Shown: positions 15,807 to 56,259, numbered from the stretch's first letter. The stretch: DNA of 64,000 nucleotides from Archaeoglobus sulfaticallidus PM70-1 (GCF_000385565.1 NC_021169.1:1096571-1160570), one strand, 5' to 3'. Numbers and translations: made by a program. Notes: generated by a model from the sequence alone, not told the origin.

Positions 15807-15814
15807 CTCCTAAA

Positions 15815-30936: not shown

Positions 30937-31030
30937 ATTTCAATCCTACAATAGTCTGGTTTTAACCTCAGGTAGCCAGCGTCCAGACAGCGTCCATGTT
31001 TGACTTTTAATACAATAGTTTGATTTTAAC
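30937..31030 (-). CRISPR. Two degenerate relic CRISPR repeats (same family as main array), ~64-bp spacing
   Basis: aTTTCAATCCTACAATAGTCTGgTTTTAAC at 30937-30966 and cTTTtAA---TACAATAGTtTGATTTTAAC at 31003-31030. Confidence 0.5.
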
Positions 31031-36793: not shown

Positions 36794-37656
36794 CTCGGAT
36801 GAAATCTGCAGCCGTCTGGTGGGTTTATAAGGCTTGGAACACTGCCTTTTAAAGGCTTCAAATGCTTTCTACGCCTTGGATCCGGAACAACTGAAAGCAA
36901 AGCTTTGGAGTACGGATGGATTGTATTTTCAAAAAGTTCTTCCGTGTTTGCTACCTCAACAACGTTTCCTGCATACATAACTCCGGCTCTATCACATATC
37001 TCGGCAACTACGCCTAAATCGTGGGTTATCAAAAGAACTGAGAACCCATAACTCTCTTTTAGCTCAAGTATCAGCCCCAGTATCTGCTTTTGTATTGTAA
37101 CATCTAATGCCGTTGTTGGCTCGTCGGCTATTAGAAGAGACGGGTTGGAAGACAGTGCCATCGCTATTAATACTCTCTGCCTCATTCCACCGCTGAGCTC
37201 ATGCGGATAGCTGTTTAAGATTCGTTCCACATCCGCTAAACCAACCGACTTAAGGTACTTCTTCGCATGCCTTAAAGACTCCTCCTTGCTCAACCCCTCA
37301 TGAGTCGTTATCACATCAACCATCTGGTCTTTGATTTTGAAGAGCGGGTTTAGAGATGTCATCGGATCCTGAAACACAACTGATATGTCTTTTCCTCTTA
37401 TCTTTCTCATTTCCTCCTCTGACTTCTCGAGAATATTTTCTCCTTTAAAGATTATTTCACCGTAAACCTCGGCGTTTGAAGGCTGCAACCTTAAAATACT
37501 CATCGCAGTGACGCTTTTCCCGCATCCGGTCTCGCCAATTAAACCAAAAATTTCCTCCTTTCGTATCTTCAGGCTAACACCATTCAGAACTTTCGCTGTT
37601 CCCCACATTGTTCTAAAGTTGACGTACAGGTCGTTTATTGTGAGGAGTTCTTTCAT
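36688..37656 (-). CDS. dppD: Oligo/dipeptide ABC transporter ATP-binding protein
   Basis: 'GETGCGKS', 'LSGGMRQR', 'LIADEPTTALD'. Start placed at the internal Met (MKELLTINDL) abutting the dppC stop. Confidence 0.85.
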   Translation of the reverse strand: MKELLTINDLYVNFRTMWGTAKVLNGVSLKIRKEEIFGLIGETGCGKSVTAMSILRLQPSNAEVYGEIIFKGENILEKSEEEMRKIRGKDISVVFQDPMTSLNPLFKIKDQMVDVITTHEGLSKEESLRHAKKYLKSVGLADVERILNSYPHELSGGMRQRVLIAMALSSNPSLLIADEPTTALDVTIQKQILGLILELKESYGFSVLLITHDLGVVAEICDRAGVMYAGNVVEVANTEELFENTIHPYSKALLSVVPDPRRRKHLKPLKGSVPSLINPPDGCRFHPRCDCMKDACTKQKPELIEYSKDHFVACHLYGGAKQ

Positions 37657-38507
37657 AGGAATCTCCTCCTTAATCTCGGATCTATAGCCTCTCTGACGGC
37701 ATCTCCAAGCAGGTTGAACGCCATTACTGTGATGAATATCGCCAAACCAGGAAATACGGGATACCACCAGTAGTTCAGGAAGTAGTTCTTCCCCTCACTA
37801 ACCATCAAACCCCAGTCGGGTGTTGGTGGCTGAACACCCAGGCCGAGAAAGCTCAGACCAGCAGCCTCGAGAATTGCCGACCCAATATCCATTGTAGCTT
37901 GAATGATTACCGGCGATATTGAGTTTGGAAGCACATGCCTTAACATTATCTTCCATTCGGCAATATCCATTGCTTTTGCCGCTTCAACGTAGGGTCTTTC
38001 CTTTACCGAAACGACCATCCCCCTCATAAGCCTCGTGTACCAGGGCCACCAGCTCAACGCTAACGCCAGGATAGCGTTGAACATCCCCCTCCCCAGCGTT
38101 GTGGCTATGAGTAATGCAAGCAGTAACGGCGGGAATGCGAGAAAGACGTCCGTTATCCTCATGATTACGAGGTCGATTTTTCTACCCACATACCCCGCAA
38201 TTAGCCCCAGAGGGACACCAATTAGCAATGCTATGGCAACGACGGAGAATCCTATCATGAGGGATGTTCTTGCTCCGTAGATTACTCTGCTCAGTATATC
38301 TCTACCCATGTCATCAGTTCCGAGAGGATGCTCAGGGCTTGGTGGCTGCAGCCTCTCCTTTAGGTTTGGCTCCCCCATTGCCTGCTCTGGATAGGGTGCT
38401 AAAACTGGTGCAAGTATTGCAATCAGAATGAGTGCGATTATTATTGAAAGACCCACTATGGAAAGCTTGTTTTTAAGTAGGACTCTAAGGATTTCGTTTC
38501 GCCTCAT
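37653..38507 (-). CDS. dppC: Oligo/dipeptide ABC transporter permease
   Basis: 284 aa with 6 TM helices and the EAA-like loop 'AAKAMDIAEWKIMLRHVLPN'. Confidence 0.85.
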   Translation of the reverse strand: MRRNEILRVLLKNKLSIVGLSIIIALILIAILAPVLAPYPEQAMGEPNLKERLQPPSPEHPLGTDDMGRDILSRVIYGARTSLMIGFSVVAIALLIGVPLGLIAGYVGRKIDLVIMRITDVFLAFPPLLLALLIATTLGRGMFNAILALALSWWPWYTRLMRGMVVSVKERPYVEAAKAMDIAEWKIMLRHVLPNSISPVIIQATMDIGSAILEAAGLSFLGLGVQPPTPDWGLMVSEGKNYFLNYWWYPVFPGLAIFITVMAFNLLGDAVREAIDPRLRRRFL

Positions 38508-38516
38508 CTTCGTCCC

Positions 38517-39536
38517 TCATAGTTTTATTCTTGGATCTAGGTATACCTGAATGAGATCAACGACCAGGTTAACGATGACGTACGTGGTTGCAGCAACAAT
38601 TGTGACTCCTAGAACTGCCGGATAATCCATGCTCAGAATCGAGTATGCGGCATATCTACCCAAACCGGGCCAGTTGAAGATTATCTCTGTCAAAAATGCG
38701 CCTGTTAGAGTATACGCCACCGATAGACCAACTGTTATCAGAGCAGGAGCGATGGCATTTTTTAAGGCGTACTTGAAGTAAATCTTTCTCGAAGGCAACC
38801 CGTATGCAAACGCCGTTTTTATGTAGTTCTCCTGAAGGACTTCTACCATCATTGAGCGAACCTGCCTCGTTATGAGCCCTACTGGGTACATGGCAAGCGT
38901 CAATGCTGGCAAAATTATGTGATGCAAAGCGTTTACAAATACGGGGATGTTGCCAGTGATTAGCGAATCAACCAGGTAAAGACCTGTTATAATTTCGAGT
39001 GGATGTTCCAGCAGTATTACGGAATCTACCCTTCCAGCAAGAGGCAATAGCTGGAGGTACTTGAAGAAAGCCAGTTGCAGGATTATACCAAACCAGAAAG
39101 TTGGCAGAGACACACCACTTATCGCAAAGATCCTGCTGAAGTTGTCGACCCAGGAGTCCTTTTTAACTGCTGAATAAACACCCAGAGGAATTCCAACTAT
39201 CAGTGCAAGCAGTTCAGCAAATAGAATGAGTTCTAGGGTTGCTGTAAAGGCTGATTTTATGTCATCGACAACGGGATTGTGAGTTCTTATCGACACTCCC
39301 AGATCTCCGTTAAGCAGGGATGAGATGTAGTATAGATACTGGTTCAACAGTGGTTCATCCAGGTGAAGCTCTTTTCTTGCCTTTTCAATTGCCTCTGGTG
39401 TTGGATGTGCTCCCACCCAAAGTGCTGCCGGATCAGAAGGTATCATTCTCGAAATGAAGAATACGACTGTGATAACTCCAAAGATTACAAACACTGCGAG
39501 TATAAGTCTGTAAATCACGTAATCTCTGTACCTCAT
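38517..39536 (-). CDS. dppB: Oligo/dipeptide ABC transporter permease
   Basis: 339 aa with 6 TM helices and EAA loop 'AFAYGLPSRKIYFKYALKNA'. Confidence 0.85.
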   Translation of the reverse strand: MRYRDYVIYRLILAVFVIFGVITVVFFISRMIPSDPAALWVGAHPTPEAIEKARKELHLDEPLLNQYLYYISSLLNGDLGVSIRTHNPVVDDIKSAFTATLELILFAELLALIVGIPLGVYSAVKKDSWVDNFSRIFAISGVSLPTFWFGIILQLAFFKYLQLLPLAGRVDSVILLEHPLEIITGLYLVDSLITGNIPVFVNALHHIILPALTLAMYPVGLITRQVRSMMVEVLQENYIKTAFAYGLPSRKIYFKYALKNAIAPALITVGLSVAYTLTGAFLTEIIFNWPGLGRYAAYSILSMDYPAVLGVTIVAATTYVIVNLVVDLIQVYLDPRIKL

Positions 39537-39571
39537 TTTACTCCCTTAAATAAAAGGAAAGAAAAAAGAAA

Positions 39572-41227
39572 TTAGGTCGCACGCAGGTCGTAGAAGAATA
39601 CCACCTGCGGGTATCCTGGGTTCGCTTCGAATCCCTTAACGCTCTTGTGAATCACGTATACGTCGTCTGGTGAGTACAGGAATATCGCTGGGGCGTCCTC
39701 CATGAGTATTTCCTCTGCTTTCCTGTATAGATCCTTGGCCTTTTCTATGTTAGTGCCTTCAAGCGCTACCGCTTTGTCAATTAATTCGTCAAACTCTGGG
39801 TTGGAGTAGTACGCCAGGTTGAAGTTTATCTCGTCTTCACTGTGGAACATGCTGAAGAGGAAATCGTACGGTGTCGGGTACGTTGGCCACCAGTAGAATA
39901 TGAACACGTCCTGTGCCTTCATTGGGTCACTCTTGGCCAAAGCCCACTGCTGCTCCCAGTTCATTGGCCTGATCTCTACATCTATGCCCAGCTTGCCCCA
40001 CTCGGCCTTGAGAATTTCGGCAACCTTCGCTTCAGCTTCATCTCCGTTCGTGTACGTTAAAACGAGCTTGAATCCTCCGTTTGGATAGCCAGCCTGCTCC
40101 AAGAGCTCTTTGGCTTTTTCAGGGTCGTATGTGTATGTCTTCAAGTCTTCAAAGTATCCGAGCATTCCGGGTGGTATCGGACCCTTAGCTGCCTTGCCGT
40201 AATCGTGGAGCACGTACTTTACGATGTCCTCATAAGGCACAGCGTAGCTCAACGCCTGCCTGACAAGTTTGTTGTCCAAAGGTGGCTTCCTGGTGTTCAG
40301 CATTGCGTAAAGCTCCTGATAGGAGGACTTCTGCTTAACAACAACGTTTGGATCCTGCTGAAGCTTAGGAATGTCGTCCAATGGCAGGTCTCTTGCGATG
40401 TGAATCTCTCCACTTGCAACCATCTGTTCTCTGAGCGAAGCATCCGGGACTATCTTTATGATTGCTATGTCGAACTGATCATCGCTCCACCCACCCCAGT
40501 ATTCATCGAACTTCTTGAGCACGACCTCGGTTTTTGGCTCATATTTTTCTATTGTGTATGGCCCGCTTCCTGCGTCGTGTCCCTTGTTCAGGTAATCTGC
40601 AATAGTTTCATCGTCTCCAATCTTCGAAAGCAACTTGCTATCCATTATGTATGCGCCGTAAGAAGAAGACGCTATCAGTGGCAGGTTGGCTGGATATTTG
40701 AGCTTGAATTTGATGGTGTAGTCATCAACAACCTCTATACTTTCAACCGGATCCCAGATGAATGATGCACCGAGCCCCATTCTGACAGTTCTTTCAATTG
40801 ACCACTTAACGTCTTCAGCGGTCAGTTCGTTTCCGCTGTGGAACTTTACACCCTTTCTCAGGTGGAATATCCATTCAGTTCCATCTTCGTTGCTCTCCCA
40901 GGAGGTTGCGAGCCACGGCTTCAAACCTTCTGGAGTGTACTTAACAAGACATTCGTAAACGTTTGGCAGAATAATGATTGAGTTAGAGAACTCTGTGCTC
41001 GGATCCAATGTGGTCATTTCGCTTACGTATCCGTAAATAACCACATTTGGCTTGCTCTCCACCTTCTTGGTTTCTTCCTTTGCACCTTCTGAAGGTGGAG
41101 TGGACGGTTCTGTAGTTTTGTTTGTTCCAGCACACCCACTAATTGCTATTGCCAGAATCAGTGCAATTACAAAACCGACACTCAGCAGTTTTCTCATGTC
41201 TGGCACCTCTATTTGTTTTTTGTGCAT
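39572..41227 (-). CDS. dppA: Family-5 ABC substrate-binding protein (peptide/nickel)
   Basis: 551 aa with an N-terminal signal/lipobox-like 'AISGCAG' and an SBP_bac_5 architecture. Confidence 0.85.
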   Translation of the reverse strand: MHKKQIEVPDMRKLLSVGFVIALILAIAISGCAGTNKTTEPSTPPSEGAKEETKKVESKPNVVIYGYVSEMTTLDPSTEFSNSIIILPNVYECLVKYTPEGLKPWLATSWESNEDGTEWIFHLRKGVKFHSGNELTAEDVKWSIERTVRMGLGASFIWDPVESIEVVDDYTIKFKLKYPANLPLIASSSYGAYIMDSKLLSKIGDDETIADYLNKGHDAGSGPYTIEKYEPKTEVVLKKFDEYWGGWSDDQFDIAIIKIVPDASLREQMVASGEIHIARDLPLDDIPKLQQDPNVVVKQKSSYQELYAMLNTRKPPLDNKLVRQALSYAVPYEDIVKYVLHDYGKAAKGPIPPGMLGYFEDLKTYTYDPEKAKELLEQAGYPNGGFKLVLTYTNGDEAEAKVAEILKAEWGKLGIDVEIRPMNWEQQWALAKSDPMKAQDVFIFYWWPTYPTPYDFLFSMFHSEDEINFNLAYYSNPEFDELIDKAVALEGTNIEKAKDLYRKAEEILMEDAPAIFLYSPDDVYVIHKSVKGFEANPGYPQVVFFYDLRAT

Positions 41228-41341: not shown

Positions 41342-44300
41342 TTCGCCATTCTACAATAGTCTGATTTTAACTTTTCTAACTTTTCCGAGCATGCGTCTTG
41401 TTCTGCTGTTCTTTCAATCCTACAATAGTCTGATTTTAACATTCAAAGTTTGTATTTTATCGCATCAATAAACAAGCCTTTCAATCCTACAATAGTCTGA
41501 TTTTAACAGAAAGATCCATCAAACATCGAAGTCGAGGTTCAGATCCTTTCAATCCTACAATAGTCTGATTTTAACAATGTTGGATTCATGACGAGACTCT
41601 TTTACAATGAGACTTTCAATCCTACAATAGTCTGATTTTAACGGCTCACTCTTGGTAGTTGGGATCCAATTAAGAAGGATCTTTCAATCCTACAATAGTC
41701 TGATTTTAACGGAGTTTGATGAAGCGGAGAGGTTTATTAGAGAAATTGACGCTTTCAATCCTACAATAGTCTGATTTTAACAAAAATAACTACATGTATG
41801 TGCATTCGCCCATTTTGTCTTTCAATCCTACAATAGTCTGATTTTAACAAACATGTTCCTGAGGCTGTTATGTGTGAATATTTCGGACTTTCAATCCTAC
41901 AATAGTCTGATTTTAACCTGCATCTCCAGCCCACATCTGTTGCCTCGAGCCTTCCACCGCACTTTCAATCCTACAATAGTCTGATTTTAACCACCATCAA
42001 CAACAAAATTCCACAAGCAGACATGAACACTTTCAATCCTACAATAGTCTGATTTTAACGTTGGCGACTTCAAGATGGGAGGGTTTATGAATCTGCATCC
42101 TCTTTCAATCCTACAATAGTCTGATTTTAACAAGTTTTCGCATGCAATACCTCCTTATGTGGAGTACTGCTTTCAATCCTACAATAGTCTGATTTTAACT
42201 TAACAACTCAGGACAGCTTTACTTTTGGATTGAAAGCCTTTCAATCCTACAATAGTCTGATTTTAACATTCAACACTTGTTTAACATAGTATATATTGAT
42301 TATTGCAAATACTTTCAATCCTACAATAGTCTGATTTTAACCTAAATAAAAGTTTGACCAATCCTGAAATCCGAACAATATTGTCTTTCAATCCTACAAT
42401 AGTCTGATTTTAACAAGGGATATGCTTCAGATGGCACTAACTATGACATTGTCTTTCAATCCTACAATAGTCTGATTTTAACGTATTACAAAGGACAGAC
42501 GCCCAAGGATTATGATATAACTTTCAATCCTACAATAGTCTGATTTTAACAGGTAGTCTCTCAGAGAACCGTCGCCACAAACCAAAACCTTTCAATCCTA
42601 CAATAGTCTGATTTTAACGTGAATGGATTTAGTCCAGTGGTTTCTATGTCGAAAACTATCTTTCAATCCTACAATAGTCTGATTTTAACTTGTTTAGAAA
42701 GACTGATGTTGTTATCGTAGATATCGCCTTTCAATCCTACAATAGTCTGATTTTAACATAAAGCAGTATCCTGTGTGTTTGTAACTATATCGCACTTTCA
42801 ATCCTACAATAGTCTGATTTTAACCTGTATTGCTGAAGTTCATGGACTGCTCACCTCTCTTATATCTTTCAATCCTACAATAGTCTGATTTTAACTGAAA
42901 TATCAGAGCCGTGTAATGAAATACCACGAATCCCCTTTCAATCCTACAATAGTCTGATTTTAACATCAATACATCTGCATGTAATAACCTTAGAGTTATA
43001 CTTTCAATCCTACAATAGTCTGATTTTAACGGTTTTTGTTAGGAGCTTTTACACCTTTGAGGAAAAACTTTCAATCCTACAATAGTCTGATTTTAACTGA
43101 GCTTTACAGACAAGGTTATTTGAACAAAACAGTTCCTTTCAATCCTACAATAGTCTGATTTTAACAAGTTTAACAAATGTGCACCCGTCGCAATATGGTT
43201 TCTTTCAATCCTACAATAGTCTGATTTTAACATTTTTATATACGGAGTGACAAAGATAGTATTGGGTGACTTTCAATCCTACAATAGTCTGATTTTAACG
43301 AAGAGCGAACTACTCTAAAAATCAAAGCAGTAAACGCTTTCAATCCTACAATAGTCTGATTTTAACAAGAGGTATGCTGAAAGATATAGTAAAGAGAAAG
43401 TGGGGCTTTCAATCCTACAATAGTCTGATTTTAACCAGCCAGCGTAGGCGGAGCGGCAACATCTGATAGCAGTCTTTCAATCCTACAATAGTCTGATTTT
43501 AACACGCTTGTGAATACAAACAAGGGGTGGGCGTTGTACTTCTTTCAATCCTACAATAGTCTGATTTTAACTTCGCTCAGAACCTCGATAAGAAAAGAGT
43601 TGTCAAAATGTGCCTTTCAATCCTACAATAGTCTGATTTTAACTCAGTTCTTGGTGCTGCTGATAGTGTTAAAGCATTTTTCTTTCAATCCTACAATAGT
43701 CTGATTTTAACTGTTCAGCAACAGAAAGTCTCTGGTCTCGAAATACTCAACCTTTCAATCCTACAATAGTCTGATTTTAACCTGCTCCCATTCCCGACAT
43801 ATCCACAACAACCTTCTGCTTTCAATCCTACAATAGTCTGATTTTAACCGTTGAGTTCACGCTCACGGGACTGAACAAGCTCGCTGTTTACCTTTCAATC
43901 CTACAATAGTCTGATTTTAACCATCGACGAGATTGATGAAACCCCTCGTTGCTACGAATGCTTTCAATCCTACAATAGTCTGATTTTAACGCAAGATGAA
44001 GGTGATTGATAAGAGGATTCCAGACGCTTTCAATCCTACAATAGTCTGATTTTAACAGTACCAGATTAAGGTTAAACTCCTGACCAATAATCTCTTTCAA
44101 TCCTACAATAGTCTGATTTTAACAAGATCTTCCACAAGAATTTCATCCGCCTGAAGGAAAGCTTTCAATCCTACAATAGTCTGATTTTAACTAGTACTCA
44201 AGCTTGTTGATCTCGATCTCGTAGCTCACCTTTCAATCCTACAATAGTCTGATTTTAACATTTCGGGATTGGCTTTCCGGCGGTTATCCCTCTTCCAGCT

Positions 44301-45621
44301 TTCAATCCTACAATAGTCTGATTTTAACTCTGTTCAATGTCGTCGTCGAGCTAATAGACAAAATAGCTTTCAATCCTACAATAGTCTGATTTTAACTCTA
44401 CTGCGGATTCTATTGAGTTTGCAATCCCTTCTGCTTTCAATCCTACAATAGTCTGATTTTAACGAAAAACTAGTGGAAGCAGTTAAGATATCTATGGATT
44501 CCTTTCAATCCTACAATAGTCTGATTTTAACAATCGTCACTGTCCAATAAGTTTCCACACTTCACACAGCTTTCAATCCTACAATAGTCTGATTTTAACT
44601 GAAAAAGAAACTAAACCGTAGATACGCCCGCATCTGCGATTGGTGCTTTCAATCCTACAATAGTCTGATTTTAACTGTCCCAGTGGTATTAAAAAACAAC
44701 TCAACATCTACCTTTCAATCCTACAATAGTCTGATTTTAACCTTTGACGGGGATCGAGTGGTTGTGGAGTGAGGTTAACTTTCAATCCTACAATAGTCTG
44801 ATTTTAACAAGTGGTCACGGGCAACAGCGGCTAAGGTGACAGATTTCTTTCAATCCTACAATAGTCTGATTTTAACTAGGGGAGTGGATTGGTGAAGTAA
44901 AAGCATACCTAATCTTTCAATCCTACAATAGTCTGATTTTAACCCTGAAAAGTTGCAGATCGATGTTTCAGATATACTTAGCTTTCAATCCTACAATAGT
45001 CTGATTTTAACTATATCCAGGAATTGTTTTACTCCCGTCGCCACTCCTGCTTTCAATCCTACAATAGTCTGATTTTAACTCGATGTTCCAGAAGATTATT
45101 ACGAAAGAACAAAGAAACTTTCAATCCTACAATAGTCTGATTTTAACTGAGCTTTGAGGAGATGAGGAAGCATGGGGTACACTACCTTTCAATCCTACAA
45201 TAGTCTGATTTTAACGCTGATGCTCATTGACCTGTTCCCGTTCATGATGCTGCTCTTTCAATCCTACAATAGTCTGATTTTAACTGCATGTTGATCCAGA
45301 GTATGCCAAGAAGTTAAGCAACTTTCAATCCTACAATAGTCTGATTTTAACCTGGACAGAAATCACATATACTGAAACCATACCAGACTTTCAATCCTAC
45401 AATAGTCTGATTTTAACAAATCCCAGTGTCTATGTTCAACTATCAGTTTACGGAGCTTTCAATCCTACAATAGTCTGATTTTAACAAAAAGATAAAGTTG
45501 TATCCATACTTTGTCCTAAGCACCTTTCAATCCTACAATAGTCTGATTTTAACTATATCCAGGAATTGTTTTACTCCCGTCGCCACTCCTGCTTTCAATC
45601 CTACAATAGTCTGATTTTAAC
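41342..45621 (-). CRISPR. Main CRISPR array, ~63 repeats of CTTTCAATCCTACAATAGTCTGATTTTAAC (plus-strand reading), spacers 35-40 nt
   Basis: Perfect 30-bp repeats at a ~67-bp period from 41411 to 45621, with a degenerate terminal repeat at 41342-41371. The reverse complement ends …GATTGAAAG (8-nt 5' handle), so crRNA is transcribed right-to-left and the leader is at the 45.6-kb end. Confidence 0.95.
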
Positions 45622-46054
45622 CCTCGGTAATTTTCCTTCTTTTTCCAATTTATAGTTTTCTACTGGGTGCTATAGCGACCCTCTGTCGTCGATCTCCAGT
45701 AATGCAACTCATTTATAAGGATGGACGACTTTCTCAATTGATCCTGTTTCCAATTTAACTTTCTCTAACCAGGCTTATTTCAATTTAAATAAAATCTGGC
45801 AGGGTATGTCTTAGATAGCTTCTCATAAACCTGCCATTCAGTAAAAGAAGAAAATAAAAATAACAAATTTAACCAATAAAATTACCAAATAAAAAGATGG
45901 ACGAATTGGTCTCAAACCGTTAAATCGAATGAAAGTCACGAGGAATTCTCAATTTACAAATTGGAGAAAAAAGAGATAGAATAAACATAGACGAATTAAA
46001 GTTTTGAAAGATCTTTACAAAGATTTATATTTGGTTAGATTCAAAAATATGTAA
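45622..46054 (-). promoter_or_regulatory. CRISPR leader (AT-rich, ~430 bp) between last repeat and cas4
   Basis: AT-rich non-coding stretch adjacent to the non-degenerate end of the array and the cas operon. Confidence 0.5.
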
Positions 46055-46552
46055 ATGATATCTGAGATGTACATCAAGGGAACTCAGGTCAACTATTATT
46101 TCATCTGCAAAACGAAATTGTGGTTGTTCAGTCACAACATCACAATGGAGCACGAAAGTGATGCTGTTAAACTTGGAAAGCTCATCCACAGAGAGGTTTT
46201 CAAAAGGGATGAAAAGGAAGTTCAGATAGGTCCCATTGCAATCGACGTCGTCAGGGTTGGCAATATCCTCGAGATAAGGGAGATAAAAAAGTCCAGAAAG
46301 ATGGAGGACTCGTACATATACCAGACCCTTTACTACCTGTATTTTCTCAAAAAATTTGGTATAGATGCCAGGGCCGTAATTTCCTTCCCCAAGCGAAGGG
46401 AAAACATTGAAATTGAACTCAGTAGAGAGGATGAAACCAAAATCAAAGAGATTCTAATGGATATTGAGAAAATAATCAATAGCCCTATGCCTAAACCGGA
46501 ATACAGAAAAATATGCAGAAAATGTGCATACTTTGAATTCTGTTTTGCGTAG
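46055..46552 (+). CDS. cas4: Cas4 (RecB-like nuclease with 4-Cys cluster)
   Basis: 'YYFICKTKLWLFSHN' and C-terminal 'CRKCAYFEFC', the Cas4 1+3 Cys arrangement. Size 165 aa. Confidence 0.85.
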   Translation: MISEMYIKGTQVNYYFICKTKLWLFSHNITMEHESDAVKLGKLIHREVFKRDEKEVQIGPIAIDVVRVGNILEIREIKKSRKMEDSYIYQTLYYLYFLKKFGIDARAVISFPKRRENIEIELSREDETKIKEILMDIEKIINSPMPKPEYRKICRKCAYFEFCFA

Positions 46553-46607
46553 GTGGTTTTATGAAGAAAAAAGAATAGTTTTATGAAGAAAAAGAACAGG
46601 TGGTTTT

Positions 46608-47582
46608 ATGAAGAAAAAGAATTACTACATACTTTCGGATGGTAAGCTGAAAAGGTACGAAAATACGATCTATTTCGAAAATAAGGACGGAAAGAAACCA
46701 ATCCCTATCAACGCAATATATGCAATCTATGCTCTGGGCTCTTTAAGTGTCACATCTAAAGCTCTATCGTTGCTTGCAAGCGAAGGTGTATGCATACACT
46801 TTTTCAATCGTTCTGGCTTCTATGTTGGAAGTTTTTATCCCAGAGAAACCCTGATTTCAGGAGATATGGTTGTAAAACAGGTACAGCACCATATTGACGA
46901 AGAGAAGCGGCTTTTCCTCGCAAAGGCTTTTGTCGAGGGCTCGATTTTAAACATGAGTAAGGTTCTGGCATATTACGGGTTAAACGATTTCAGAGTAGAG
47001 GTGGAAAATGCACTCCAGAGCTTGGCTAACGCTAAAACTGTTGCCGAGATCATGGGTGCAGAGGCAACGGCAAGGAATGCATACTATTCAGCCTTCGATT
47101 CAATTCTCAAGAACTTTGAATTCGGGAAGCGGAGCAGACAGCCACCGGAGAACGAAGTTAACGCAATGATCAGCTTTGGCAACTCCCTGCTTTACTCTAC
47201 CGTGTTATCCGAGATCTACCACACCCAGCTTCATCCAGCCATATCTTACCTGCATGAACCGTCCGAAAGGAGGTTTAGCCTGGCACTTGACATTGCCGAA
47301 CTCTTCAAGCCGATGATAGTTGATAGAACAATATTCTATCTTGTAAACAAGGGGATTGTTAGTGAAGGTGATTTCAACAGGGATCTGAAGAGCGTTCTGC
47401 TAAACGAAAGCGGGAAGAGGAAGTTTCTTTCCGCATATAATGATAAACTTAACACGACCGTTAAGCATAGAGGTCTTGGTAGGAATGTCTCATACCAGCG
47501 CCTGATAAGACTTGAATGTTATAAGCTTGCAAAGCATTTGATTGGAGTTGAAAAATACAAACCCTTCGTGATGTGGTGGTGA
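46608..47582 (+). CDS. cas1: Cas1 integrase
   Basis: 324 aa with a typical Cas1 N-terminus ('[19 protein letters not shown]…') and C-terminal metal-site residues (E…H…E). Confidence 0.92.
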
Positions 47583-47845
47583 TGTACGTAATCGTTGTTT
47601 ATGATGTGAATGTTGATAGAGTCAACAGGATAAAGAAGTTCTTGAGGAGATATCTAACATGGATTCAGAATTCTGTTTTTGAGGGTGAAATCACACCGGC
47701 AGATCTTGAAGAAGTGAAAATGGGTATAAGGGAAATCATAGACGAGGATGAGGATATGGTCGTGATCTACCGTCTTCCCAGCAGTAAAAGTCTGAACAGA
47801 GAGATAATGGGCGTGGACAAGAGCGGGAGTGAGGAAATCATCTGA
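47573..47845 (+). CDS. cas2: Cas2
   Basis: 90 aa reading '[24 protein letters not shown]…QNSVFEGE'. Overlaps the cas1 stop. Confidence 0.9.
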
Positions 47846-47951
47846 TTTTTTGTAATTTTTTCTGATATCTAGTAAAATTAGTTGGAATTAACATTTTTCA
47901 CTTTTACACTACTCGAAAATATTAAGTAAGTGTGATTTTAAAATTTTAAGT

Positions 47952-48692
47952 GTGAGACTTCAGGTGAATCTTGTGGCTGTATCAAATCCAGCATTTATCG
48001 ATTTTAACCATTCTTATCACCTTGCATCGATGATCTATAGAGCTGTAGAGCGGATTGATCCCAGGCTATCGCTTGAGCTACACACTCCATCGACATTCAA
48101 GTTCTTCACATTCAGCAGGTTGTTGGTTGAGGGCAAGAATTTCAGGGTTGAGAAGGGCAAGATGAGGCTGCTCAATCCAAATGTGCGCTTCTTCTTTTCG
48201 ACGCTGCAGAAGCACATCGGTGTTGCTCTCGTCGAGGGGTTGCTTGAGAAGCCGGAGGTAAAGATAGGGGACGCAAAATTTGTTGTTTCAGAGATAAAGG
48301 TGCTTAAGGAGAAGGAGATTGGCAGAAAAGAGAGGTTTATCACATTGTCGCCGATTAATGTTACGACTGTTGTGGATAATGGCAGGAGGAGGATTGTTGA
48401 TCTGTATCCCGACAGCCTGAAGTTTTACGAGAATTTGAAGAAGAATCTGGTCAGGAAGTATGTGGCTTACTATGGAAGGGAGCCAGAGGATGACGATTTC
48501 AGGATTAGGGTATTAAGATCCAAGATGAAGAGAATTCAGGTGAAGAATACTTTTCACAGGTGTGTTGAGATGGTTTTCGATGCTGAGGGTAGTAAGGAAT
48601 TGCTGGAGATTGGGTACAAGGCGGGATTTGGTGAGAGGAATTCAATGGGGTTTGGGATGGTGAAGGCTGTTGATAGTAGAAGTATTTCGTAA
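47952..48692 (+). CDS. cas6: Cas6 crRNA endoribonuclease
   Basis: 246 aa with the C-terminal glycine-rich loop 'GFGERNSMGFGMV' and duplicated ferredoxin-fold pattern. GTG start. Confidence 0.85.
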   Translation: MRLQVNLVAVSNPAFIDFNHSYHLASMIYRAVERIDPRLSLELHTPSTFKFFTFSRLLVEGKNFRVEKGKMRLLNPNVRFFFSTLQKHIGVALVEGLLEKPEVKIGDAKFVVSEIKVLKEKEIGRKERFITLSPINVTTVVDNGRRRIVDLYPDSLKFYENLKKNLVRKYVAYYGREPEDDDFRIRVLRSKMKRIQVKNTFHRCVEMVFDAEGSKELLEIGYKAGFGERNSMGFGMVKAVDSRSIS

Positions 48693-50955
48693 GTTAACCG
48701 GCGTCAATCCCTACGAATATCAAAAAATAGCTATGGAGAACTTGGTAGAAGGTAAATCGCTTATTATTAGAGCCCCTACTGGTTCCGGGAAAACAGAAGT
48801 GGCCTTAATTCCTTTTATTTATGGTCTCAACGATTTTCTGCCTTCACAGCTAATTTATTCGCTTCCGACGAGAACTTTAGTCGAAAGTATTGGCGAGCGA
48901 GCTACAAAATACGCGTCATTCAAAAAGCTTAGAGTGGCAACCCATCACGGTAAAAAAGCGACAAGTAGCCTTTTTGAGGAGGATATAATTGTTACAACAA
49001 TTGACCAAACTGCTGGAGCATATTTGAGCGTTCCATTAAGTATGCCCAAGAGATGGGGAAACATATTTGTTGGTGGTGTTGCATCAGCTCTAACCGTTTT
49101 TGATGAGGTACACACTCTTGACCCAGAAAAAGGTCTTCAGACGGCTGCAGCAATAGCCATGCAATCTGCAAAACTTGGCTTTCCTTCAATTATAATGTCT
49201 GCCACTCTACCAGATGTTTTCATTGAACGTGTTGGGGAAAGAATAGAGAAAAATGGAGGTAAAGTCGAGATTATAGATGTGGCGAATGAATCAGAAATCA
49301 AATCGAGGAAAAATCGGAAAGTTGAACTTATAAATAGGACTAATGAAGAGTTAGTGGCAGACACAGTTTTAAATAAGGCTGAAAACTGTAGGAAACTTGT
49401 TGTAGTCGTTAACACTGTTGAGCGAGCACAGAGGCTGTATCTTGATCTAAGGGAAAAAACAGACTATCCAATCCTTCTCTTGCACTCTAGGTATCTCGAA
49501 GAAGATCGGGCAAAAAAGGAGAAATTTCTTGAAGAAGTCTTCGGTAAGAACGGTAAAGGGGAGTGTATATTTATCTCCACACAGGTAGTAGAAGTAGGAA
49601 TGGACATCTCTTCTCCAGTGATTTTGTCAGAAGCAGCTCCAGTTGACGCACTAATACAAAGGGCAGGAAGATGTGCGAGATGGGGTGGCAATGGAGAATT
49701 TCACGTTTTTGGGCTCGCCAAAGACGTTGGGAATCCATATGCTCCATATTTGAAAGGGCTCGTCGAGGCTACGATAACTGAAATTAGTAGTAGAGGGAAT
49801 TTTACTTTAGACTGGCAAACTGAAGTCGAACTTGTTAACCAAGTGCTTTCGAGTCATTTTGAGTTTTTCATGGATTCGACGTTCTTTTATCAGAGGCTTG
49901 GGGAACTTGCAAGAGCAGTTTATGAGGGGAGCAAAGCAAAGGTGGAGCAAAACGTTAGAGAAGTTTTCTCGTGCGATGTTACACTGCACGAAAATCCTGA
50001 ATCTCTAGAACCAGAGGAAATTTTGGCACTGCCAAGGATACGCGTTGACGCACGAGTTTTAAGTGGTAAAGTTGAGAAGCTTGCGGAATTGGGTATTAAA
50101 ACATACAAATTAGAGGAAAATCCAGTAATCGGAGACTACGACAAAAGTGGGTACATCCCAGTACTTGTCAAAAGTAAAGAAGATGTAACTCCGTTTGAAC
50201 TTTATGTTCTGAGTGGTGCTTGCTATTCTCCAGAAGTTGGGCTTGTGTTTGACAAATCTGCTCCTAATGCAATCAAATCCTTTGAGCCCGATAAACTGAA
50301 ACTTAATGACATTAAAAGCCAAGCTGAATATAAGCTTGAGAAAGAGACTTGGGTTGAACACGCTAAGAGAGCTTTACATGCACTCGATTGCTACCTAATC
50401 CCTCGTTACTACTATGTTATCAAAAATTTCGCTGATTACTTCGGGTACGAATATAACGAGTTCGTTGATCTTATTAAATGCATAACTGCACTGCACGATC
50501 TTGGCAAATTGAACATAACCTGGCAGAAGAAAGTGAGCTGGGACAGTAAAATACCCTTAGCTCACTCAGATAAAAATAACGTCAGTGGTGGTTTGCCCCC
50601 ACACGCTCCTGTTTCTGCAAAAGCTTTGCAGCCTTATTTAGAAAGTTTATTCGACGATGAGGATGTGTTCAAAGCATTCTATTTGGCTATTGCTCATCAC
50701 CACGCACCGTGGGTGAGAGAATACAAGGAATACAGTCTAATTCCAGACTTCGACAAATTCATTGAGGAAGTTTGGAGTGTTCCGAAGGAGTTAATCAAAG
50801 CCCATGATTCTGCTGGAAGACTCGATTTTACTTATTTGGATTTAATTGATGAAAATGAGGCCTATAGACTTTACGGTCTCCTATCTAAATTACTGAGGAT
50901 ATCTGACAGGCTTGCTACAGGAGGTGTAAGTTATGAATCGATATTTTCTGCCTAA
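48670..50955 (+). CDS. cas3: Cas3 fusion: N-terminal DEAH helicase + C-terminal HD nuclease
   Basis: Helicase motifs 'APTGSGKTE', 'FDEVH', 'SAT', 'QRAGRCAR'. The C-terminus carries HD motifs 'HALD', 'LHDLGK', 'AHSDK', 'IAHHHAPW'. Confidence 0.85.
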   Translation: MIVEVFRKLTGVNPYEYQKIAMENLVEGKSLIIRAPTGSGKTEVALIPFIYGLNDFLPSQLIYSLPTRTLVESIGERATKYASFKKLRVATHHGKKATSSLFEEDIIVTTIDQTAGAYLSVPLSMPKRWGNIFVGGVASALTVFDEVHTLDPEKGLQTAAAIAMQSAKLGFPSIIMSATLPDVFIERVGERIEKNGGKVEIIDVANESEIKSRKNRKVELINRTNEELVADTVLNKAENCRKLVVVVNTVERAQRLYLDLREKTDYPILLLHSRYLEEDRAKKEKFLEEVFGKNGKGECIFISTQVVEVGMDISSPVILSEAAPVDALIQRAGRCARWGGNGEFHVFGLAKDVGNPYAPYLKGLVEATITEISSRGNFTLDWQTEVELVNQVLSSHFEFFMDSTFFYQRLGELARAVYEGSKAKVEQNVREVFSCDVTLHENPESLEPEEILALPRIRVDARVLSGKVEKLAELGIKTYKLEENPVIGDYDKSGYIPVLVKSKEDVTPFELYVLSGACYSPEVGLVFDKSAPNAIKSFEPDKLKLNDIKSQAEYKLEKETWVEHAKRALHALDCYLIPRYYYVIKNFADYFGYEYNEFVDLIKCITALHDLGKLNITWQKKVSWDSKIPLAHSDKNNVSGGLPPHAPVSAKALQPYLESLFDDEDVFKAFYLAIAHHHAPWVREYKEYSLIPDFDKFIEEVWSVPKELIKAHDSAGRLDFTYLDLIDENEAYRLYGLLSKLLRISDRLATGGVSYESIFSA

Positions 50956-51985
50956 AGCTGGCTGGGAGTTTTTTGATGTATCAAGGGCATACGGATTAGG
51001 GATTATTGTGCATGCACTAAGTGGAGATGCAGTAGTAAGTGATATGGGTGGGTTTTATTTGATAGAATCGAAAAGAGAATTGAATTTTGAGAGAATCGAC
51101 CAGATTCATCGATTTTTAGGTGATGATCGAGCTTGGAACAGGACTTTCCTAACGATTGGAAGTGGACAAAGAGAAAAGACGAAAAAGAGGGTTGTAGAGT
51201 TCTTAGGAAATGTAGAAAATATCCGAAATATATTGGATGATCTAAAAGAGCTAAAATCACCCGTTTCTATAGGAAGCGGGAAGGAGACTCTATATCAGCC
51301 AATGGAGCTGGCAGCAACGAAGGGTATTAGGGATGAAATTCTGTTAAAAAAGCAATATTCTGAAGGATCGTCTGTAAAAGTGTCGATAAATGATTTTAGC
51401 CTGTCAGTACTGGGGCACATCAATGCAACCATACGAAAGTTCTCAAACATGGGCATGGTTTTTGCCGTTCCAAGCCCTACCAGAACAAGAATACTGCACC
51501 TAATTGATGAGATTAAAAAGAGAATCGATGACTCGGTAAAAGGCTTACATAGGGCAGGGTGGTTTCCATCACTCGCTCAAATAGCCATAAATTTAGTTTT
51601 AGAAGAACTTAGAGTTGAAGAAGGCGGTAAATTTGCCCCAAAGTTCGGTTCTTTGATATACGGTGTGATGACAAGAACAGGAAATCAGTGGAAACCGTTG
51701 ACAGGTGGTATTTTTCCTCTTGATTTCCTACACCAGATAGCGGAATCCAATGAAGCAAAGGATGTGCTGAATAAATGGAAAGATATCTTTGAATGGACAG
51801 CCTTCAGAAAGGGGTACGAAGATTTGCCAAGTACTTTAGCCGAATTCATAGCAAATCCTAGTTTGTCCAATTATGAAAGATACATCAAACTTCATCTAAG
51901 AAATGAGCTTGATAAAGACCGAATAAAGTTCGGAAGTTACGAAAAGAGAGTTTTGGAGGGGGTGGTGAGTTTTGTCGGAGTTTAA
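50933..51985 (+). CDS. Candidate Cascade large subunit (Cas8a2/Csa4-sized, 350 aa), assigned by position
   Basis: No motif recognised. It sits between cas3 and the small-subunit/cas7/cas5 genes and overlaps its neighbours translationally. Confidence 0.45.
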   Translation: MNRYFLPKAGWEFFDVSRAYGLGIIVHALSGDAVVSDMGGFYLIESKRELNFERIDQIHRFLGDDRAWNRTFLTIGSGQREKTKKRVVEFLGNVENIRNILDDLKELKSPVSIGSGKETLYQPMELAATKGIRDEILLKKQYSEGSSVKVSINDFSLSVLGHINATIRKFSNMGMVFAVPSPTRTRILHLIDEIKKRIDDSVKGLHRAGWFPSLAQIAINLVLEELRVEEGGKFAPKFGSLIYGVMTRTGNQWKPLTGGIFPLDFLHQIAESNEAKDVLNKWKDIFEWTAFRKGYEDLPSTLAEFIANPSLSNYERYIKLHLRNELDKDRIKFGSYEKRVLEGVVSFVGV

Positions 51986-52334
51986 ACTTGGAGACATTTT
52001 TGGATGTGAAGCTGTAAAGAATTTTGGAGCAGCATTGAGGAAAGCACTGAGGATTGGCGACGATTACGCATCTCTTGTAGAATTAGAATACGTTGAGACA
52101 AAAGAACAGTTTGAAGAAGTTATAAAGAAGTTTTTGAGGAGATACGAGACTATAGCTAGGAGAGGTTACAAGGGAAAGGAGCTTAGTCGCCTTAGCGAGA
52201 AGGATCTAGAAGAGCTCATGGGTTTGGTGGATAAGTACGATGTAAAGCCAATTAGAGCGGCACTCATCAGTTACGCTCTCGTTAAAAGCGAGAGAGAAGA
52301 CGAAACTACATTCGAATCTGAGGAGGTGGTTTAA
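51972..52334 (+). CDS. Candidate Cascade small subunit (Cas11/Csa5-like, 120 aa), assigned by position
   Basis: Small helical protein directly upstream of cas7, overlapping both neighbours. Confidence 0.4.
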   Translation: MSEFKLGDIFGCEAVKNFGAALRKALRIGDDYASLVELEYVETKEQFEEVIKKFLRRYETIARRGYKGKELSRLSEKDLEELMGLVDKYDVKPIRAALISYALVKSEREDETTFESEEVV

Positions 52335-53288
52335 GTGAGTGGAATTTATGAAATCGCTATTTTGGGTAGAGCTACATGGCAGCTACACAGCCTGAACAAT
52401 GAAGGAACCGTTGGAAACGTTACAGAGCCGAGAAGTGTTAGAATAATCGATCCAAACACAAAGAAAGCTGTAACAACCGATGGAATTTCTGGAGAGATGC
52501 TAAAACATATTCATACAGAGATTATGTGGGCATTAGATGACAAAAACAACTTATGCGACGCCTGCAAGGTGCTGAACCCAGAAAAATTCAACTTTGCGAT
52601 AAAAACAAAAAAGGTTACAACCAAGGACGTTGAAGACGCGTTAAAACAGGCTTTAGAAACATGCGATATTTGTGACGTTCAGGGCTTCCTTCTCGAAAGA
52701 CCCACAGCTTCAAGAAAATCAACAGTAGAATTTGGCTGGGCTCTTGGAATACCTGAGGTTTATAGGGATATCCACACCCACGCGAGGCACGCTCTTGGTG
52801 AGAAAGGCAGAGGAGGTAGAAATCAAGAAAACGAGGGGGAAACTGAGGGTGTTTCAACACAGATGGTATATCACCGTCCAACCCGTTCCGGTGTGTATGC
52901 AGTTATTTCAGTATTCCAGCCTTGGAGAATTGGATTGAATGAAGTAAGACAGAGTAAATACACCTATGATGCGGACGATAGCGCGAGGGAGAGAAGATAC
53001 AAACTCGCATTGAAGGCGTATCAGCTTCTGTTTGCCCGTCCAGAAGGAGCAATGACTACCACACGATTGCCGCATGTTGAAGATTTCAGCGGAGTAATAG
53101 TTTACTCGACAGAGCCAATACCTGTTCCTATAATCTCGCCTCTTAAGAACGACTATGTTAACGAAATAAAAACTATAGCAGAAAGCTTAGACGCTTCATT
53201 AAAAGTTGTTGAGTTCGACGGTATTGCAGACTTCGCGATAAAGATAGGGCAGCTGACTAACAATAAACCATACGAAATGGAGTTTTAG
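52335..53288 (+). CDS. cas7: Cas7 backbone protein
   Basis: N-terminal 'ATWQLHSLNNEGTVGNVTEPR' is the Cas7 (Csa2/Csh2-type) signature strand-loop. Size 317 aa. Confidence 0.8.
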   Translation: MSGIYEIAILGRATWQLHSLNNEGTVGNVTEPRSVRIIDPNTKKAVTTDGISGEMLKHIHTEIMWALDDKNNLCDACKVLNPEKFNFAIKTKKVTTKDVEDALKQALETCDICDVQGFLLERPTASRKSTVEFGWALGIPEVYRDIHTHARHALGEKGRGGRNQENEGETEGVSTQMVYHRPTRSGVYAVISVFQPWRIGLNEVRQSKYTYDADDSARERRYKLALKAYQLLFARPEGAMTTTRLPHVEDFSGVIVYSTEPIPVPIISPLKNDYVNEIKTIAESLDASLKVVEFDGIADFAIKIGQLTNNKPYEMEF

Positions 53289-53298
53289 GTGAACAAAG

Positions 53299-53985
53299 AT
53301 GCAGTGGGTAAAATTATCACTACACTTTCCATCTTTTTTCTCGTACCGCATACCAGATTACTCTTCACAGTACGCTTTGAGTGTCCCATTGCCGTCTCCG
53401 TCGGCGATAAAGCTTGCAGTGGTAGCAACGGCCATAAGAGCTACTGGTAATGTTGCTGAGGGTGAGTGTGTCTTTTATGCTGTGCGGGATGCTGATATAC
53501 GAATTGTCCCGCCCGAGCAAATTGCGATTAACTCGGTTTTGATTAGGCGACTGAAGAAAAAGAAGAATCCCACAGAGTTAGAAACTTTCGAGAGGACGTT
53601 TGGAGTCAGAGAATACGTCTTCTTTCCAGATGACATAAACTTGTTAGTCGGTTGTGACGATATCGATACTGCAATCAAATATTTTGGCATACTAAGATAT
53701 CTTGGCTCAAGTGACTCGATGCTTTACGTCAAGCGCGTAGAGCAAATTGAAGAACCACCAGAAAGTGCAATTAAAGCAATAACTGATAAAGAATTTGTAG
53801 AAGCTATTTCCAAAGAATCCTACGTGATTTATCCAGTAAATGACATAAGTAAAAAGGCAAAATTCGAACAAATAAACCCGTATTCGGAAAAATCAGGCAG
53901 AAACGTCTTTGAAAGAAAATATTACCTCATCAAAGCCAAAATCAAAAAGGGCAAAAACTGGAAAGTCCTCGAAATTTGGTGTTAG
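53299..53985 (+). CDS. cas5: Cas5
   Basis: 'SVPLPSPSAIKLAVVATAIRATG' matches the Cas5 N-terminal PxPS…G motif. Size 228 aa. Confidence 0.72.
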   Translation: MQWVKLSLHFPSFFSYRIPDYSSQYALSVPLPSPSAIKLAVVATAIRATGNVAEGECVFYAVRDADIRIVPPEQIAINSVLIRRLKKKKNPTELETFERTFGVREYVFFPDDINLLVGCDDIDTAIKYFGILRYLGSSDSMLYVKRVEQIEEPPESAIKAITDKEFVEAISKESYVIYPVNDISKKAKFEQINPYSEKSGRNVFERKYYLIKAKIKKGKNWKVLEIWC

Positions 53986-54098: not shown

Positions 54099-54305
54099 GT
54101 GTTCAAAATGGGCGAGATCACGATCAAAGTGAGGGTGCCAGATCGCTTTGAAGAGATATTCAAGCGGGAAGTTGAAGAGTTAGCCAAAGCTTTGATTGAG
54201 AAGGAACGGCTTTTTGAAAAGTTAAGGGAACTCAAAGGTATTCTTGAGACAGATAAACCATGGAAGGAGCTAAAGAGAGAGATCTATGAGCAGAGTTCTT
54301 ATTGA
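54099..54305 (+). CDS. VapB-like antitoxin
   Basis: 68 aa. Its stop overlaps the PIN gene start. A TATA-like TTAAATA and the shared motif TTTCATGCAAATAATT lie upstream. Confidence 0.55.
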   Translation: MFKMGEITIKVRVPDRFEEIFKREVEELAKALIEKERLFEKLRELKGILETDKPWKELKREIYEQSSY

Positions 54306-54741
54306 TAGCTCGCTATTAATTGAATATTTCAAAGGAAATCCCAAAGCCGTTGAAATCTTTGAGAATTTGAAGACCTCTCCAGTAGCTCTTTTGATAAATC
54401 CCATTGTATTTAGTGAAGTCAGCTACCTGTTTTTGAGATATTCTACCAAGAAGAGCCGTTTTGATTTTACACCTGAAGTTGTTAAGAGCTCAAAAATAGA
54501 GACTCTTTTCGTTTTACTGAACTCCTTTGGAATACTTGACCTTACAAAGGAAATAGTGATTCTTGCAGAAAATATCATGGTTAAGTACGGTTTGCTGCCA
54601 AACGATGCTCTAATTCTGGCGACGTGTAAATTTTACGGGATTAAATATCTGATCTCTCTCGATGGAGATTTCAAAGAACCATGCGTGAAGGAGGGAATAG
54701 AACTTATAGAGAGTGCTGAAAAACTTAAATTAATTGAATAG
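54286..54741 (+). CDS. vapC: PIN-domain toxin (VapC)
   Basis: 'RVLIDSSLLIEYF…' carries the first acidic residue. Further acidic residues lie at 'NDALILA' and 'ISLDGDF'. Confidence 0.8.
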   Translation: MSRVLIDSSLLIEYFKGNPKAVEIFENLKTSPVALLINPIVFSEVSYLFLRYSTKKSRFDFTPEVVKSSKIETLFVLLNSFGILDLTKEIVILAENIMVKYGLLPNDALILATCKFYGIKYLISLDGDFKEPCVKEGIELIESAEKLKLIE

Positions 54742-55498: not shown

Positions 55499-55780
55499 AT
55501 GTATAAAGGCAAGAATAACTCAATGAACGAAATCTCAGTACAGATACCTCAGGAACTCGCCAGAATCCTTGGAGTTAAAGCGAGTGAGCTTCCAAAAGTC
55601 GTAAGGCTGTACCTTGCTATAGAGCTTTACCGTGAGGGTAAGGTCAGCCTCGGAAAAGCTTCCGAAATAGCGGGGCTGAGCAAGTGGGAGATGATGGAAA
55701 TTCTTGCATCTAAAGGCATATCATTGCAGTACGATGAGGAAGATTTGAAGGAAGATATTGAAGTCCTTGAGAGTCTATGA
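55499..55780 (+). CDS. UPF0175-family antitoxin
   Basis: 93 aa reading 'LYLAIELYREGKVSLGKASEIAGLSKWEMMEIL', with ATGA overlap to the downstream PIN gene. Confidence 0.65.
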   Translation: MYKGKNNSMNEISVQIPQELARILGVKASELPKVVRLYLAIELYREGKVSLGKASEIAGLSKWEMMEILASKGISLQYDEEDLKEDIEVLESL

Positions 55781-56259
55781 TTGTTGTATCTAACTCAAGT
55801 CCTCTTATTACTCTTGCAAAGATAGGAAAACTGAGCACTCTAAAGGAGCTTTTTGGAGAAATCATTATTCCAAAGGCAGTTTGGGTTGAAGTTGTTGAAA
55901 AGGGAAGAGGAAAGCCTGGGGCTGAAGAGGTTGAAAAGGCAGAATGGATTAAAGTGATTGAGGTCAAAGACAGGCTTGGCGTTGAAATTCTGAGAAGTGA
56001 AATCGAGACTGGAGAAGCTGAGGCGATAGTTCTTGCGAAAGTGCTCGATGCAGATCTTCTTCTGATGGATGAGAAAATTCCAAGGCTCATAGCAAAATCC
56101 CTCAATATTAAGGTTGCTGGTAGCCTTGCAGTCATCTATATTGCAAAGAAAAAGGGAATAATCAAAGAAGATTTTGATGAAATTGTTAAGATACTCAGGC
56201 TTAAAGGTATCAGATTCAGCGATGAGGTTGTTAGAAAGCTGAAGGAGCTGTATGGATAG
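55777..56259 (+). CDS. PIN-domain protein (DUF3368-like) toxin partner of UPF0175
   Basis: 160 aa with acidic residues at 'LLLMDEK' and 'ETGEAEAIVLA', and a size typical for the family. Confidence 0.65.
   Translation: MIVVSNSSPLITLAKIGKLSTLKELFGEIIIPKAVWVEVVEKGRGKPGAEEVEKAEWIKVIEVKDRLGVEILRSEIETGEAEAIVLAKVLDADLLLMDEKIPRLIAKSLNIKVAGSLAVIYIAKKKGIIKEDFDEIVKILRLKGIRFSDEVVRKLKELYG

Follow-up and report, generated by a model that had tools for sequence, protein, structure and literature searches.

Division of Cas3 into a helicase (cas3') and an HD nuclease (cas3'') is, in the Makarova classification, a typical but not a universal feature of type I-A CRISPR-Cas systems. Solved structures of the I-A Cascade-Cas3 complex (7TR6, 7TR8, 7TR9, 7TRA and 7R2K), which we take to be Pyrococcus furiosus complexes, contain the helicase and the HD nuclease as two chains, and the Cas3' and Cas3'' chains belong to the same Cascade entries. 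Here, we analyzed a CRISPR-Cas locus (positions 41342-53985) in a 64,000-nucleotide stretch (the window) of Archaeoglobus sulfaticallidus PM70-1 (NC_021169.1:1096571-1160570), in which helicase and nuclease are encoded as one 761-residue protein. Profile and sequence comparisons make it very probable that this is a functional-looking I-A system of a widespread and already profiled lineage, whose single cas3 gene combines a 5' cas3' part (helicase) with a 3' cas3'' part (HD nuclease). The locus shares with the solved complexes a Cas7a that is detectable by sequence, a Cas11a and a Cas6 that are separate proteins, a Cas5a, a repeat that is unstructured and has ATTGAAAG at its end, and a Cas3 whose two halves are nearest to the chains of these complexes. 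It differs from them in the single-chain Cas3 and in its adaptation module, which is located upstream and involves a Cas1 of the Cas1b family.

Archaeal variants that branch next to I-A have been described as VI-1 (from five genomes) and VI-2 (from two) by Vestergaard et al., 2014 (PMC3973734). They occur in euryarchaea and carry five-gene interference modules with cas8 divided into cas8' and cas8'', and their Cas8 proteins were outside the CDD and TIGRFAM models of the time. By its gene content (cas3, cas8', cas8'', cas7, cas5), our locus fits the description of these five-gene modules and is a candidate member. Vestergaard et al. regarded the variants as rare and confined to archaea, whereas the loci compared here include bacterial ones and comprise more than 100 protein clusters. 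It should be kept in mind that this paper, like the P. furiosus papers, uses "I-G" for the Tneap/Cst group and not for the subtype that the later Makarova scheme calls I-G (formerly I-U). In the literature searched, to which the Makarova classifications of 2015 and 2020 did not belong, we found neither an explicit statement of an I-A system with a fused C-terminal-HD Cas3 nor a characterised member of such a lineage, and the architecture of I-A Cas3 is not treated in the 2025 classification update. A paper on a "novel I-A Cas3 variant" of Thermococcus siculi was rejected as a precedent because the Cas3 described there is a split helicase-plus-HD.

The cas genes form nine open reading frames (ORFs) on the plus strand (46055-53985), which are arranged in the order cas4-cas1-cas2-cas6-cas3-cas8a-cas11a-cas7-cas5. 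All of them are intact and their lengths are typical of their families. A previous sequence-only reading of this DNA had listed the nine ORFs at coordinates that match the sequence exactly, and its gene identities, together with the claim of a complete type I locus, were confirmed for all nine genes by hidden Markov models (NCBIfam, Pfam, PADLOC). Its start position (41342) is a real coordinate, but it belongs to the CRISPR array and not to the operon. In model-based typing, PADLOC returned Cas8a (E = 1.2e-158, 526 bits), Cas11a (E = 7e-57, 188 bits), Cas3a1 (E = 3e-222, 738 bits) and Cas5a (E = 1e-27), and these I-A models scored far above the I-B, I-C, I-E and I-G models. Assignment to I-A on the basis of separate large and small subunits stood up, and both matched PADLOC CAS-I-A models. 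In contrast, the suggestion of an undescribed I-A variant or an I-A/I-G hybrid found no support because existing profiles place the effector proteins cleanly in I-A; placement in a catalogued subtype with this architecture, which had been named as the outcome speaking against that suggestion, is essentially what we obtained. Taken together, these data describe a complete and apparently intact type I-A CRISPR-Cas immune locus. It is of a catalogued and ordinary kind, its fused-Cas3 layout being widespread and matched by existing Cas profile models.

The fused cas3 gene (48670-50955, plus strand) encodes a helicase (residues 1-372, approximately), an accessory or linker region (approximately 373-560) and an HD nuclease (563-750). 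The superfamily 2 DExH helicase core was delimited to residues 31-372 by TIGR01587 and the HD domain to residues 563-750 by TIGR01596. These spans agree with the earlier description of a single 761-residue protein with the helicase first and the HD domain last. The HD motifs quoted at that time (LHDLGK, AHSDK, IAHHHAPW) are all present in Cas3, but helicase motif II is DEVH (DExH) and not DEAH as had been stated. When 16 homologues with identities down to 38% were compared, the catalytic residues of the helicase (G38-K41 of Walker A; D145, E146 and H148; Q330, R331, G333 and R334 of motif VI) and those of the HD domain (H564, H609, D610, H645, H676-H678, D746) were found to be invariant. Behind Cas3a1, the next PADLOC models were Cas3b (about 225 bits) and Cas3g (190 bits). 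The AlphaFold model of the protein has a predicted local distance difference test score (pLDDT) of 81.5 and its top fold matches are Cas3 proteins. Among the entries of the Protein Data Bank (PDB), the nearest relatives of the helicase half are 7r2k_A (E = 3e-56) and 7tr8_A (E = 2e-53), which represent the I-A Cas3 helicase. With a profile of the HD half (residues 540-761), the I-C and I-E Cas3 proteins ranked below 3s4l (whose annotation reads "CAS3 metal dependent phosphohydrolase"), 8wth and chains 7tr8_Q, 7tra_Q and 7r2k_Q of the I-A Cas3-HD. Since the nearest solved relatives of each half are I-A chains, both halves are I-A-like.

Searching 5.8 billion proteins, we found more than 120 clusters (90% identity) of Cas3 homologues of 680-790 residues, most of them full-length and carrying helicase and Cas3_HD Pfam domains. 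They originate from Archaeoglobales, Methermicoccus, Thermococcus, Thermoplasmatota, Aenigmatarchaeota, Hadarchaeales and Methanocellales as well as from Thermotogaceae, Thermodesulfobacteriota, Syntrophaceae, Aminicenantes and others. The possibility that the fused ORF arose artificially, through a frameshift or faulty assembly, was rejected, since a protein of this length with the two domains recurs in more than 100 clusters of homologues. Relatives with a split Cas3 were also detected. In two of these loci (L020, L022), a helicase gene of 541-568 residues (corresponding to residues 1-369 of the fused protein) is directly followed by a gene of 250 residues (corresponding to 557-679), and in two others (L021, L023) the break is located earlier, with a second gene corresponding to residues 410-679. 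As the helicase gene precedes the HD gene in such relatives, the fused Cas3 looks like the product of a cas3'-cas3'' gene fusion. The simplest reading of these comparisons would be that I-A systems natively have the helicase gene before the HD gene and that the two were fused or separated more than once.

The large Cascade subunit Cas8a (350 residues) is encoded by positions 50933-51985 (plus strand) and matches the PADLOC Cas8a model PDLC01513 over its full length. The ORF shows 100% identity to Asulf_01250 of the published, complete genome, a gene that carries the annotation "hypothetical protein", and neither Pfam nor NCBIfam models recognised it. PDB searches with the single sequence and with a 25-sequence profile yielded nothing meaningful; the link to the solved I-A chain came from fold comparison, and the sequence identity is 14%. 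The small subunit Cas11a (120 residues; 51972-52334, plus strand; PDLC01488, CAS-I-A small subunit) represents the separately encoded small subunit by which I-A is recognised. Its gene starts with TTG, and a Shine-Dalgarno-like GGAGGGGGTGGTGA precedes this codon inside the 3' end of cas8a. The match to PDLC01488 extends over the full length of the protein, and a further match is to the C-terminal portion of a different Cas8a model (PDLC01586). Cas7 (317 residues; 52335-53288, plus strand) is a backbone subunit of the DevR/MJ0381 family (PF01905, E = 3.7e-74; TIGR01875, E = 1.9e-53) and its best profile matches are generic type I Cas7 and DevR models. Its placement in I-A is therefore due to the PDB profile search and not to the Cas7 typing models. 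In this search, a Cas7 profile built from ten related loci matched solely I-A Cas7a/Csa2 structures (7r21/7tr8, E = 3e-17; 4reg, 3ps0, 9cp1) and no Cas7 of other subtypes at E <= 1. As a single sequence, Cas7 gave no PDB match. Cas5a (228 residues; 53299-53985, plus strand) was identified by TIGR01874 (31.3 bits at a cut-off of 23.05), TIGR02593 and the PADLOC Cas5a model PDLC01390, and its profile did not match any PDB entry. The combination of a Cas7 of the Csa2/DevR group with a Cas5a, which characterises I-A, is present at the locus.

Related loci were collected by a genome scan limited to 600 stretches, which under-samples the close relatives (Archaeoglobus, Thermococcus), and these were recovered by a separate search. 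The order cas6-cas3 (fused)-cas8a-cas11a-cas7-cas5 is kept in Thermococcus sp. 5-4, in A. neptunius and in an archaeal metagenome-assembled genome. In Chloroflexota (L005) and Bathyarchaeia, the cas3-cas8a-cas11a-cas7-cas5 block was found, with no adjacent cas6 detected. As a whole, the unit recurs in Thermococcus, other Archaeoglobus species, Aenigmatarchaeota, Bathyarchaeia, Chloroflexota and Thermotogaceae. In an Aenigmatarchaeota locus (468 residues, 11043-12449) and in a Dehalococcoidia locus (534 residues, 12153-13757) a single ORF covers the large and the small subunit; a separate cas11a was found in neither of the two, and the subunits appear to be fused there. Adaptation genes are located upstream of the effector genes in the window, 3' of cas5 in Thermococcus sp. 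5-4 and in the metagenome-assembled genome, and they are absent beside the module of A. neptunius. Because their position varies among relatives, the adaptation-before-effector order, which the sequence-only reading had considered noteworthy, is a local arrangement and not a feature of the system. In the A. neptunius locus (15433-22274), the place of the adaptation genes behind the effector block is taken by two HEPN/nucleotidyltransferase pairs, by RAMP-domain genes and by an AbiEi/AbiEii pair; the RAMP-domain genes are possibly a type III module.

A second Chloroflexota locus (L013), which is I-A-typed by a Cas8a of family PDLC01417, also carries a fused Cas3 (799 residues, C-terminal HD), followed by Cas8a, a DevR-type Cas7, Cas5a (218 bits), Cas6 and Cas1. 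It differs from the A. sulfaticallidus locus in its different and larger Cas8a (604 residues), in the lack of a separate Cas11 gene and in a Cas3 that is only about 27% identical. Since this locus has it too, the fused C-terminal-HD Cas3 is not peculiar to one Cas8a family. Members of the I-A lineage with fused C-terminal-HD Cas3 are known from many phyla of archaea and bacteria and involve two or more Cas8a families. In L013, the gene immediately upstream of cas3 encodes a WYL-domain protein (8942-9985), which matches positions 1-320 of the 1009-position PADLOC Cas3c model. This match suggests that some Cas3 proteins carry a WYL-type domain as N-terminal fusion.

The adaptation genes of the A. 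sulfaticallidus locus are cas4 (165 residues; 46055-46552; PF01930, E = 1.5e-54; TIGR00372 above its cut-off), cas1 (324 residues; 46608-47582; Cas1b/HMARI family; PF01867) and cas2 (90 residues; 47573-47845; TIGR01573, PF09827), all on the plus strand. They are followed on the same strand by cas6 (246 residues; 47952-48692), which encodes the pre-CRISPR RNA endoribonuclease (TIGR01877, E = 1.3e-48; PF21350, the Cas6_I-A N-terminal domain; PF01881). I-A systems are also recognised by a stand-alone Cas6 and an 8-nucleotide 5' handle. Here, a Cas6 with the PF21350 domain is present and the repeat ends in ATTGAAAG, so that the handle is a predicted one. At the cas4-cas1 junction (46551-46622), we observed three tandem copies of a 22-25-nucleotide unit (TTTTATGAAGAAAAAGAA), with GGTGG in front of copies 1 and 3. 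The third ATG (46608) alone opens cas1, and the first ATG starts a 5-codon mini-ORF (MKKKE-stop). These units may represent a duplicated translation-start region.

The CRISPR array (41342-45621; CRISPR RNA sense on the minus strand) consists of 62 perfect copies of the 30-nucleotide repeat CTTTCAATCCTACAATAGTCTGATTTTAAC (41411-45621; 0 expected by chance), one degenerate terminal repeat (41342-41371) and 62 spacers of 36-46 nucleotides (mode 38). The resulting total of 63 repeats corresponds to the approximately 63 that had been counted before, and the repeat form quoted with that count, GTTAAAATCAGAC...GGATTGAAAG, is the reverse complement. In CRISPR RNA sense (minus strand), the repeat reads GTTAAAATCAGACTATTGTAGGATTGAAAG. 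It is near-unstructured, folding weakly (-3.6 kcal/mol, z = -1.2), and an Rfam scan assigned it to no CRISPR repeat family at its gathering score. Between the array and cas4 there is a gap of 433 bp (45622-46054, minus strand) with a guanine-cytosine content of 31% as compared with 43% for the window, which we consider a putative leader and divergent promoter region. Because the degenerate repeat is located at the far end and this gap is AT-rich, the array most likely has its leader beside cas4 and is transcribed from there on the minus strand.

All but one of the spacers of the main array are unique. The spacer TATATCCAGGAATTGTTTTACTCCCGTCGCCACTCCTG is present twice (45012-45049 and 45554-45591), and one of its copies is the leader-nearest spacer. 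A mini-array of four repeats (32456-32688), two of which carry an A-to-G change, is located 9-10 kb off the main array, and there is a lone degenerate repeat at 30937-30966. Of the three spacers in the mini-array, the middle one (32554-32590) also occurs, without a difference, in the main array (43300-43336), whereas the other two resemble none of the main-array spacers.

Several observations weigh against the I-A assignment. The fused cas3 is a single ORF and does not show the cas3'/cas3'' split usually listed for this subtype, and the protein aligns in the same domain order with the I-G models Cas3g and TIGR02621 (176 bits, below the cut-off of 400). Cas11a matched no Pfam or NCBIfam model, the Csa5 model included, and Cas7 reached 100 bits on the Csa2-specific TIGR02583, which is below the cut-off of 212.6. 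When the whole array was compared with 50,697 phage records (blastn, word size 11), no protospacer match was obtained and neither a protospacer-adjacent motif (PAM) nor a target can be deduced from it. Finally, Cas1, Cas2, Cas4 and Cas6 gave their best scores with I-B-flavoured models, so that the adaptation proteins carry an I-B label. The I-B-like character of the four proteins is the sole "hybrid" aspect of the locus. That archaeal type I subtypes exchange adaptation modules has been documented (PMC3973734), and in the VI-1 and VI-2 variants such exchange is frequent.

A chimaera, in which an I-A Cascade has recruited a Cas3 of the I-G (formerly I-U) type with C-terminal HD domain, is highly improbable in our opinion. 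The order of the domains, helicase N-terminal and HD C-terminal, does equal that of Cas3 from subtype I-G (GSU0051-0054 type), and a weak similarity to the Cas3g model PDLC01770 extends over residues 4-677 (E = 1.6e-56). In addition, the type I-G structure indicated that Cas8g is similar in fold to Methanocaldococcus Cas8a2 and that Cas3 is an integral subunit (PMC9638904). This likeness of fold is compatible with a distant kinship of I-A and I-G, but it does not make the locus a hybrid. However, Cas3 reaches 738 bits on the I-A model and only 190 bits on Cas3g, and TIGR02621 remains far under its cut-off. Among solved structures, each half has its closest relatives in I-A Cas3' and Cas3''. 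Moreover, the helicase-then-HD pairs of the split relatives, with their differing break points, show local fusion or fission. Csx17/Cas8g, Csb1 (Cas7g) and Csb2 (Cas5-Cas6 fusion) were not detected among the locus proteins with NCBIfam and PADLOC, and the Cas4-Cas1 fusion of I-G is not present either, since Cas4 and Cas1 are separate ORFs that reach 22 and 193 bits on NF049935 (cut-off 560).

We see little chance that the locus is an I-B system, or a member of a Tneap-like subtype ("I-G" of Vestergaard), with a Cas8b split into two genes. What the locus has in common with I-B is a Cas1b-type adaptation module: Cas1 scores 476 bits on TIGR03641 and passes the cut-off of 304, the best PADLOC models of Cas2 and Cas4 are Cas2b and Cas4b, and Cas6 likewise prefers a "b" model. 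Vestergaard et al., 2014 (PMC3973734) explain the five-gene variants by a division of the cas8 gene of Tneap-type modules, and the Aenigmatarchaeota and Dehalococcoidia loci with one ORF for both subunits can be viewed in the same way. However, no Cas8b model matched, Cas11a is encoded separately, and the similarities of Cas5 to the Cas5b model (E = 3e-3) and of Cas7 to the Cas7b model (E = 3e-4) are marginal. The HD domain of Cas3 is C-terminal and not N-terminal as in I-B, and the I-B Cas3 models align solely from profile position 190-250 (approximately) onward. That the locus is decaying or silent and has lost its immune function strikes us as extremely improbable. Such decay would fit the lack of an adjacent regulator gene, the duplicated spacer, the lack of known-virus matches and the four-repeat array fragment 9 kb off, which shares a spacer with the main array. 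Against it stand the nine intact ORFs of family-typical lengths, the conserved catalytic residues, the 62 identical repeats and the otherwise unique spacers.

From the family membership of its proteins, the I-A system would be expected to operate as follows. Cas1, Cas2 and Cas4 would add spacers to the array at its end beside the leader (near 45621), and the array would be transcribed on the minus strand. Cas6 would cleave each repeat and leave the 8-nucleotide 5' handle ATTGAAAG. On the resulting CRISPR RNA, Cas5a, several copies of Cas7, Cas8a and Cas11a would assemble to Cascade, which would recognise a PAM-flanked DNA target and form an R-loop. This R-loop would license the single-chain Cas3, whose HD site would nick the displaced non-target strand and degrade it while the enzyme translocates. 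By analogy with the solved complexes, the fusion most likely hard-wires the partnership of Cas3' and Cas3'' seen in I-A Cascade, and one might guess that the fused Cas3 may be a stable Cascade subunit rather than a recruited factor.

In the neighborhood of the locus, an operon for an Opp/Dpp-type ABC transporter (35735-41227, minus strand) is located upstream of the array. Directly 3' of cas5, there is a toxin-antitoxin-like PIN-domain gene (54286-54741). Further on, a UPF0175 gene (55499-55780) overlaps a gene with a DUF3368 and a PIN-like domain (55777-56259), and the two form a toxin-antitoxin-like pair, beyond which redox and metabolic genes follow. A Pfam scan of the flanking ORFs of about 90 residues or more detected no CARF, Csa3 or WYL genes adjoining the locus, and the earlier claim that a csa3/CARF regulator is lacking holds for these ORFs. 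The Rfam matches in the window, a transfer RNA and a C/D-box small RNA (sR1 family) at 18160-18232 and 23451-23504, are unrelated to the CRISPR locus.

The main value of this analysis is correct annotation: NCBI names the homologues of the large subunit "hypothetical protein", and PADLOC models recognise both the large and the small subunit. If a compact and thermostable I-A system with single-chain Cas3 is wanted for biotechnology, members of this lineage are candidates. A more far-reaching interpretation, according to which the fused-Cas3 I-A lineage is a coherent, unnamed I-A sub-variant bridging to I-G or, alternatively, according to which the fusion alters Cas3 regulation as compared with split chains, is tentative and in our view rather unlikely. 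The bridge to I-G would be consistent with the domain order of Cas3, with Cas3 as an integral Cascade subunit and with the fold similarity of Cas8a and Cas8g. For I-A systems in general, whether the adaptation module precedes or follows the effector genes carries no typing information, and a split Cas3 is typical of this subtype but does not define it.

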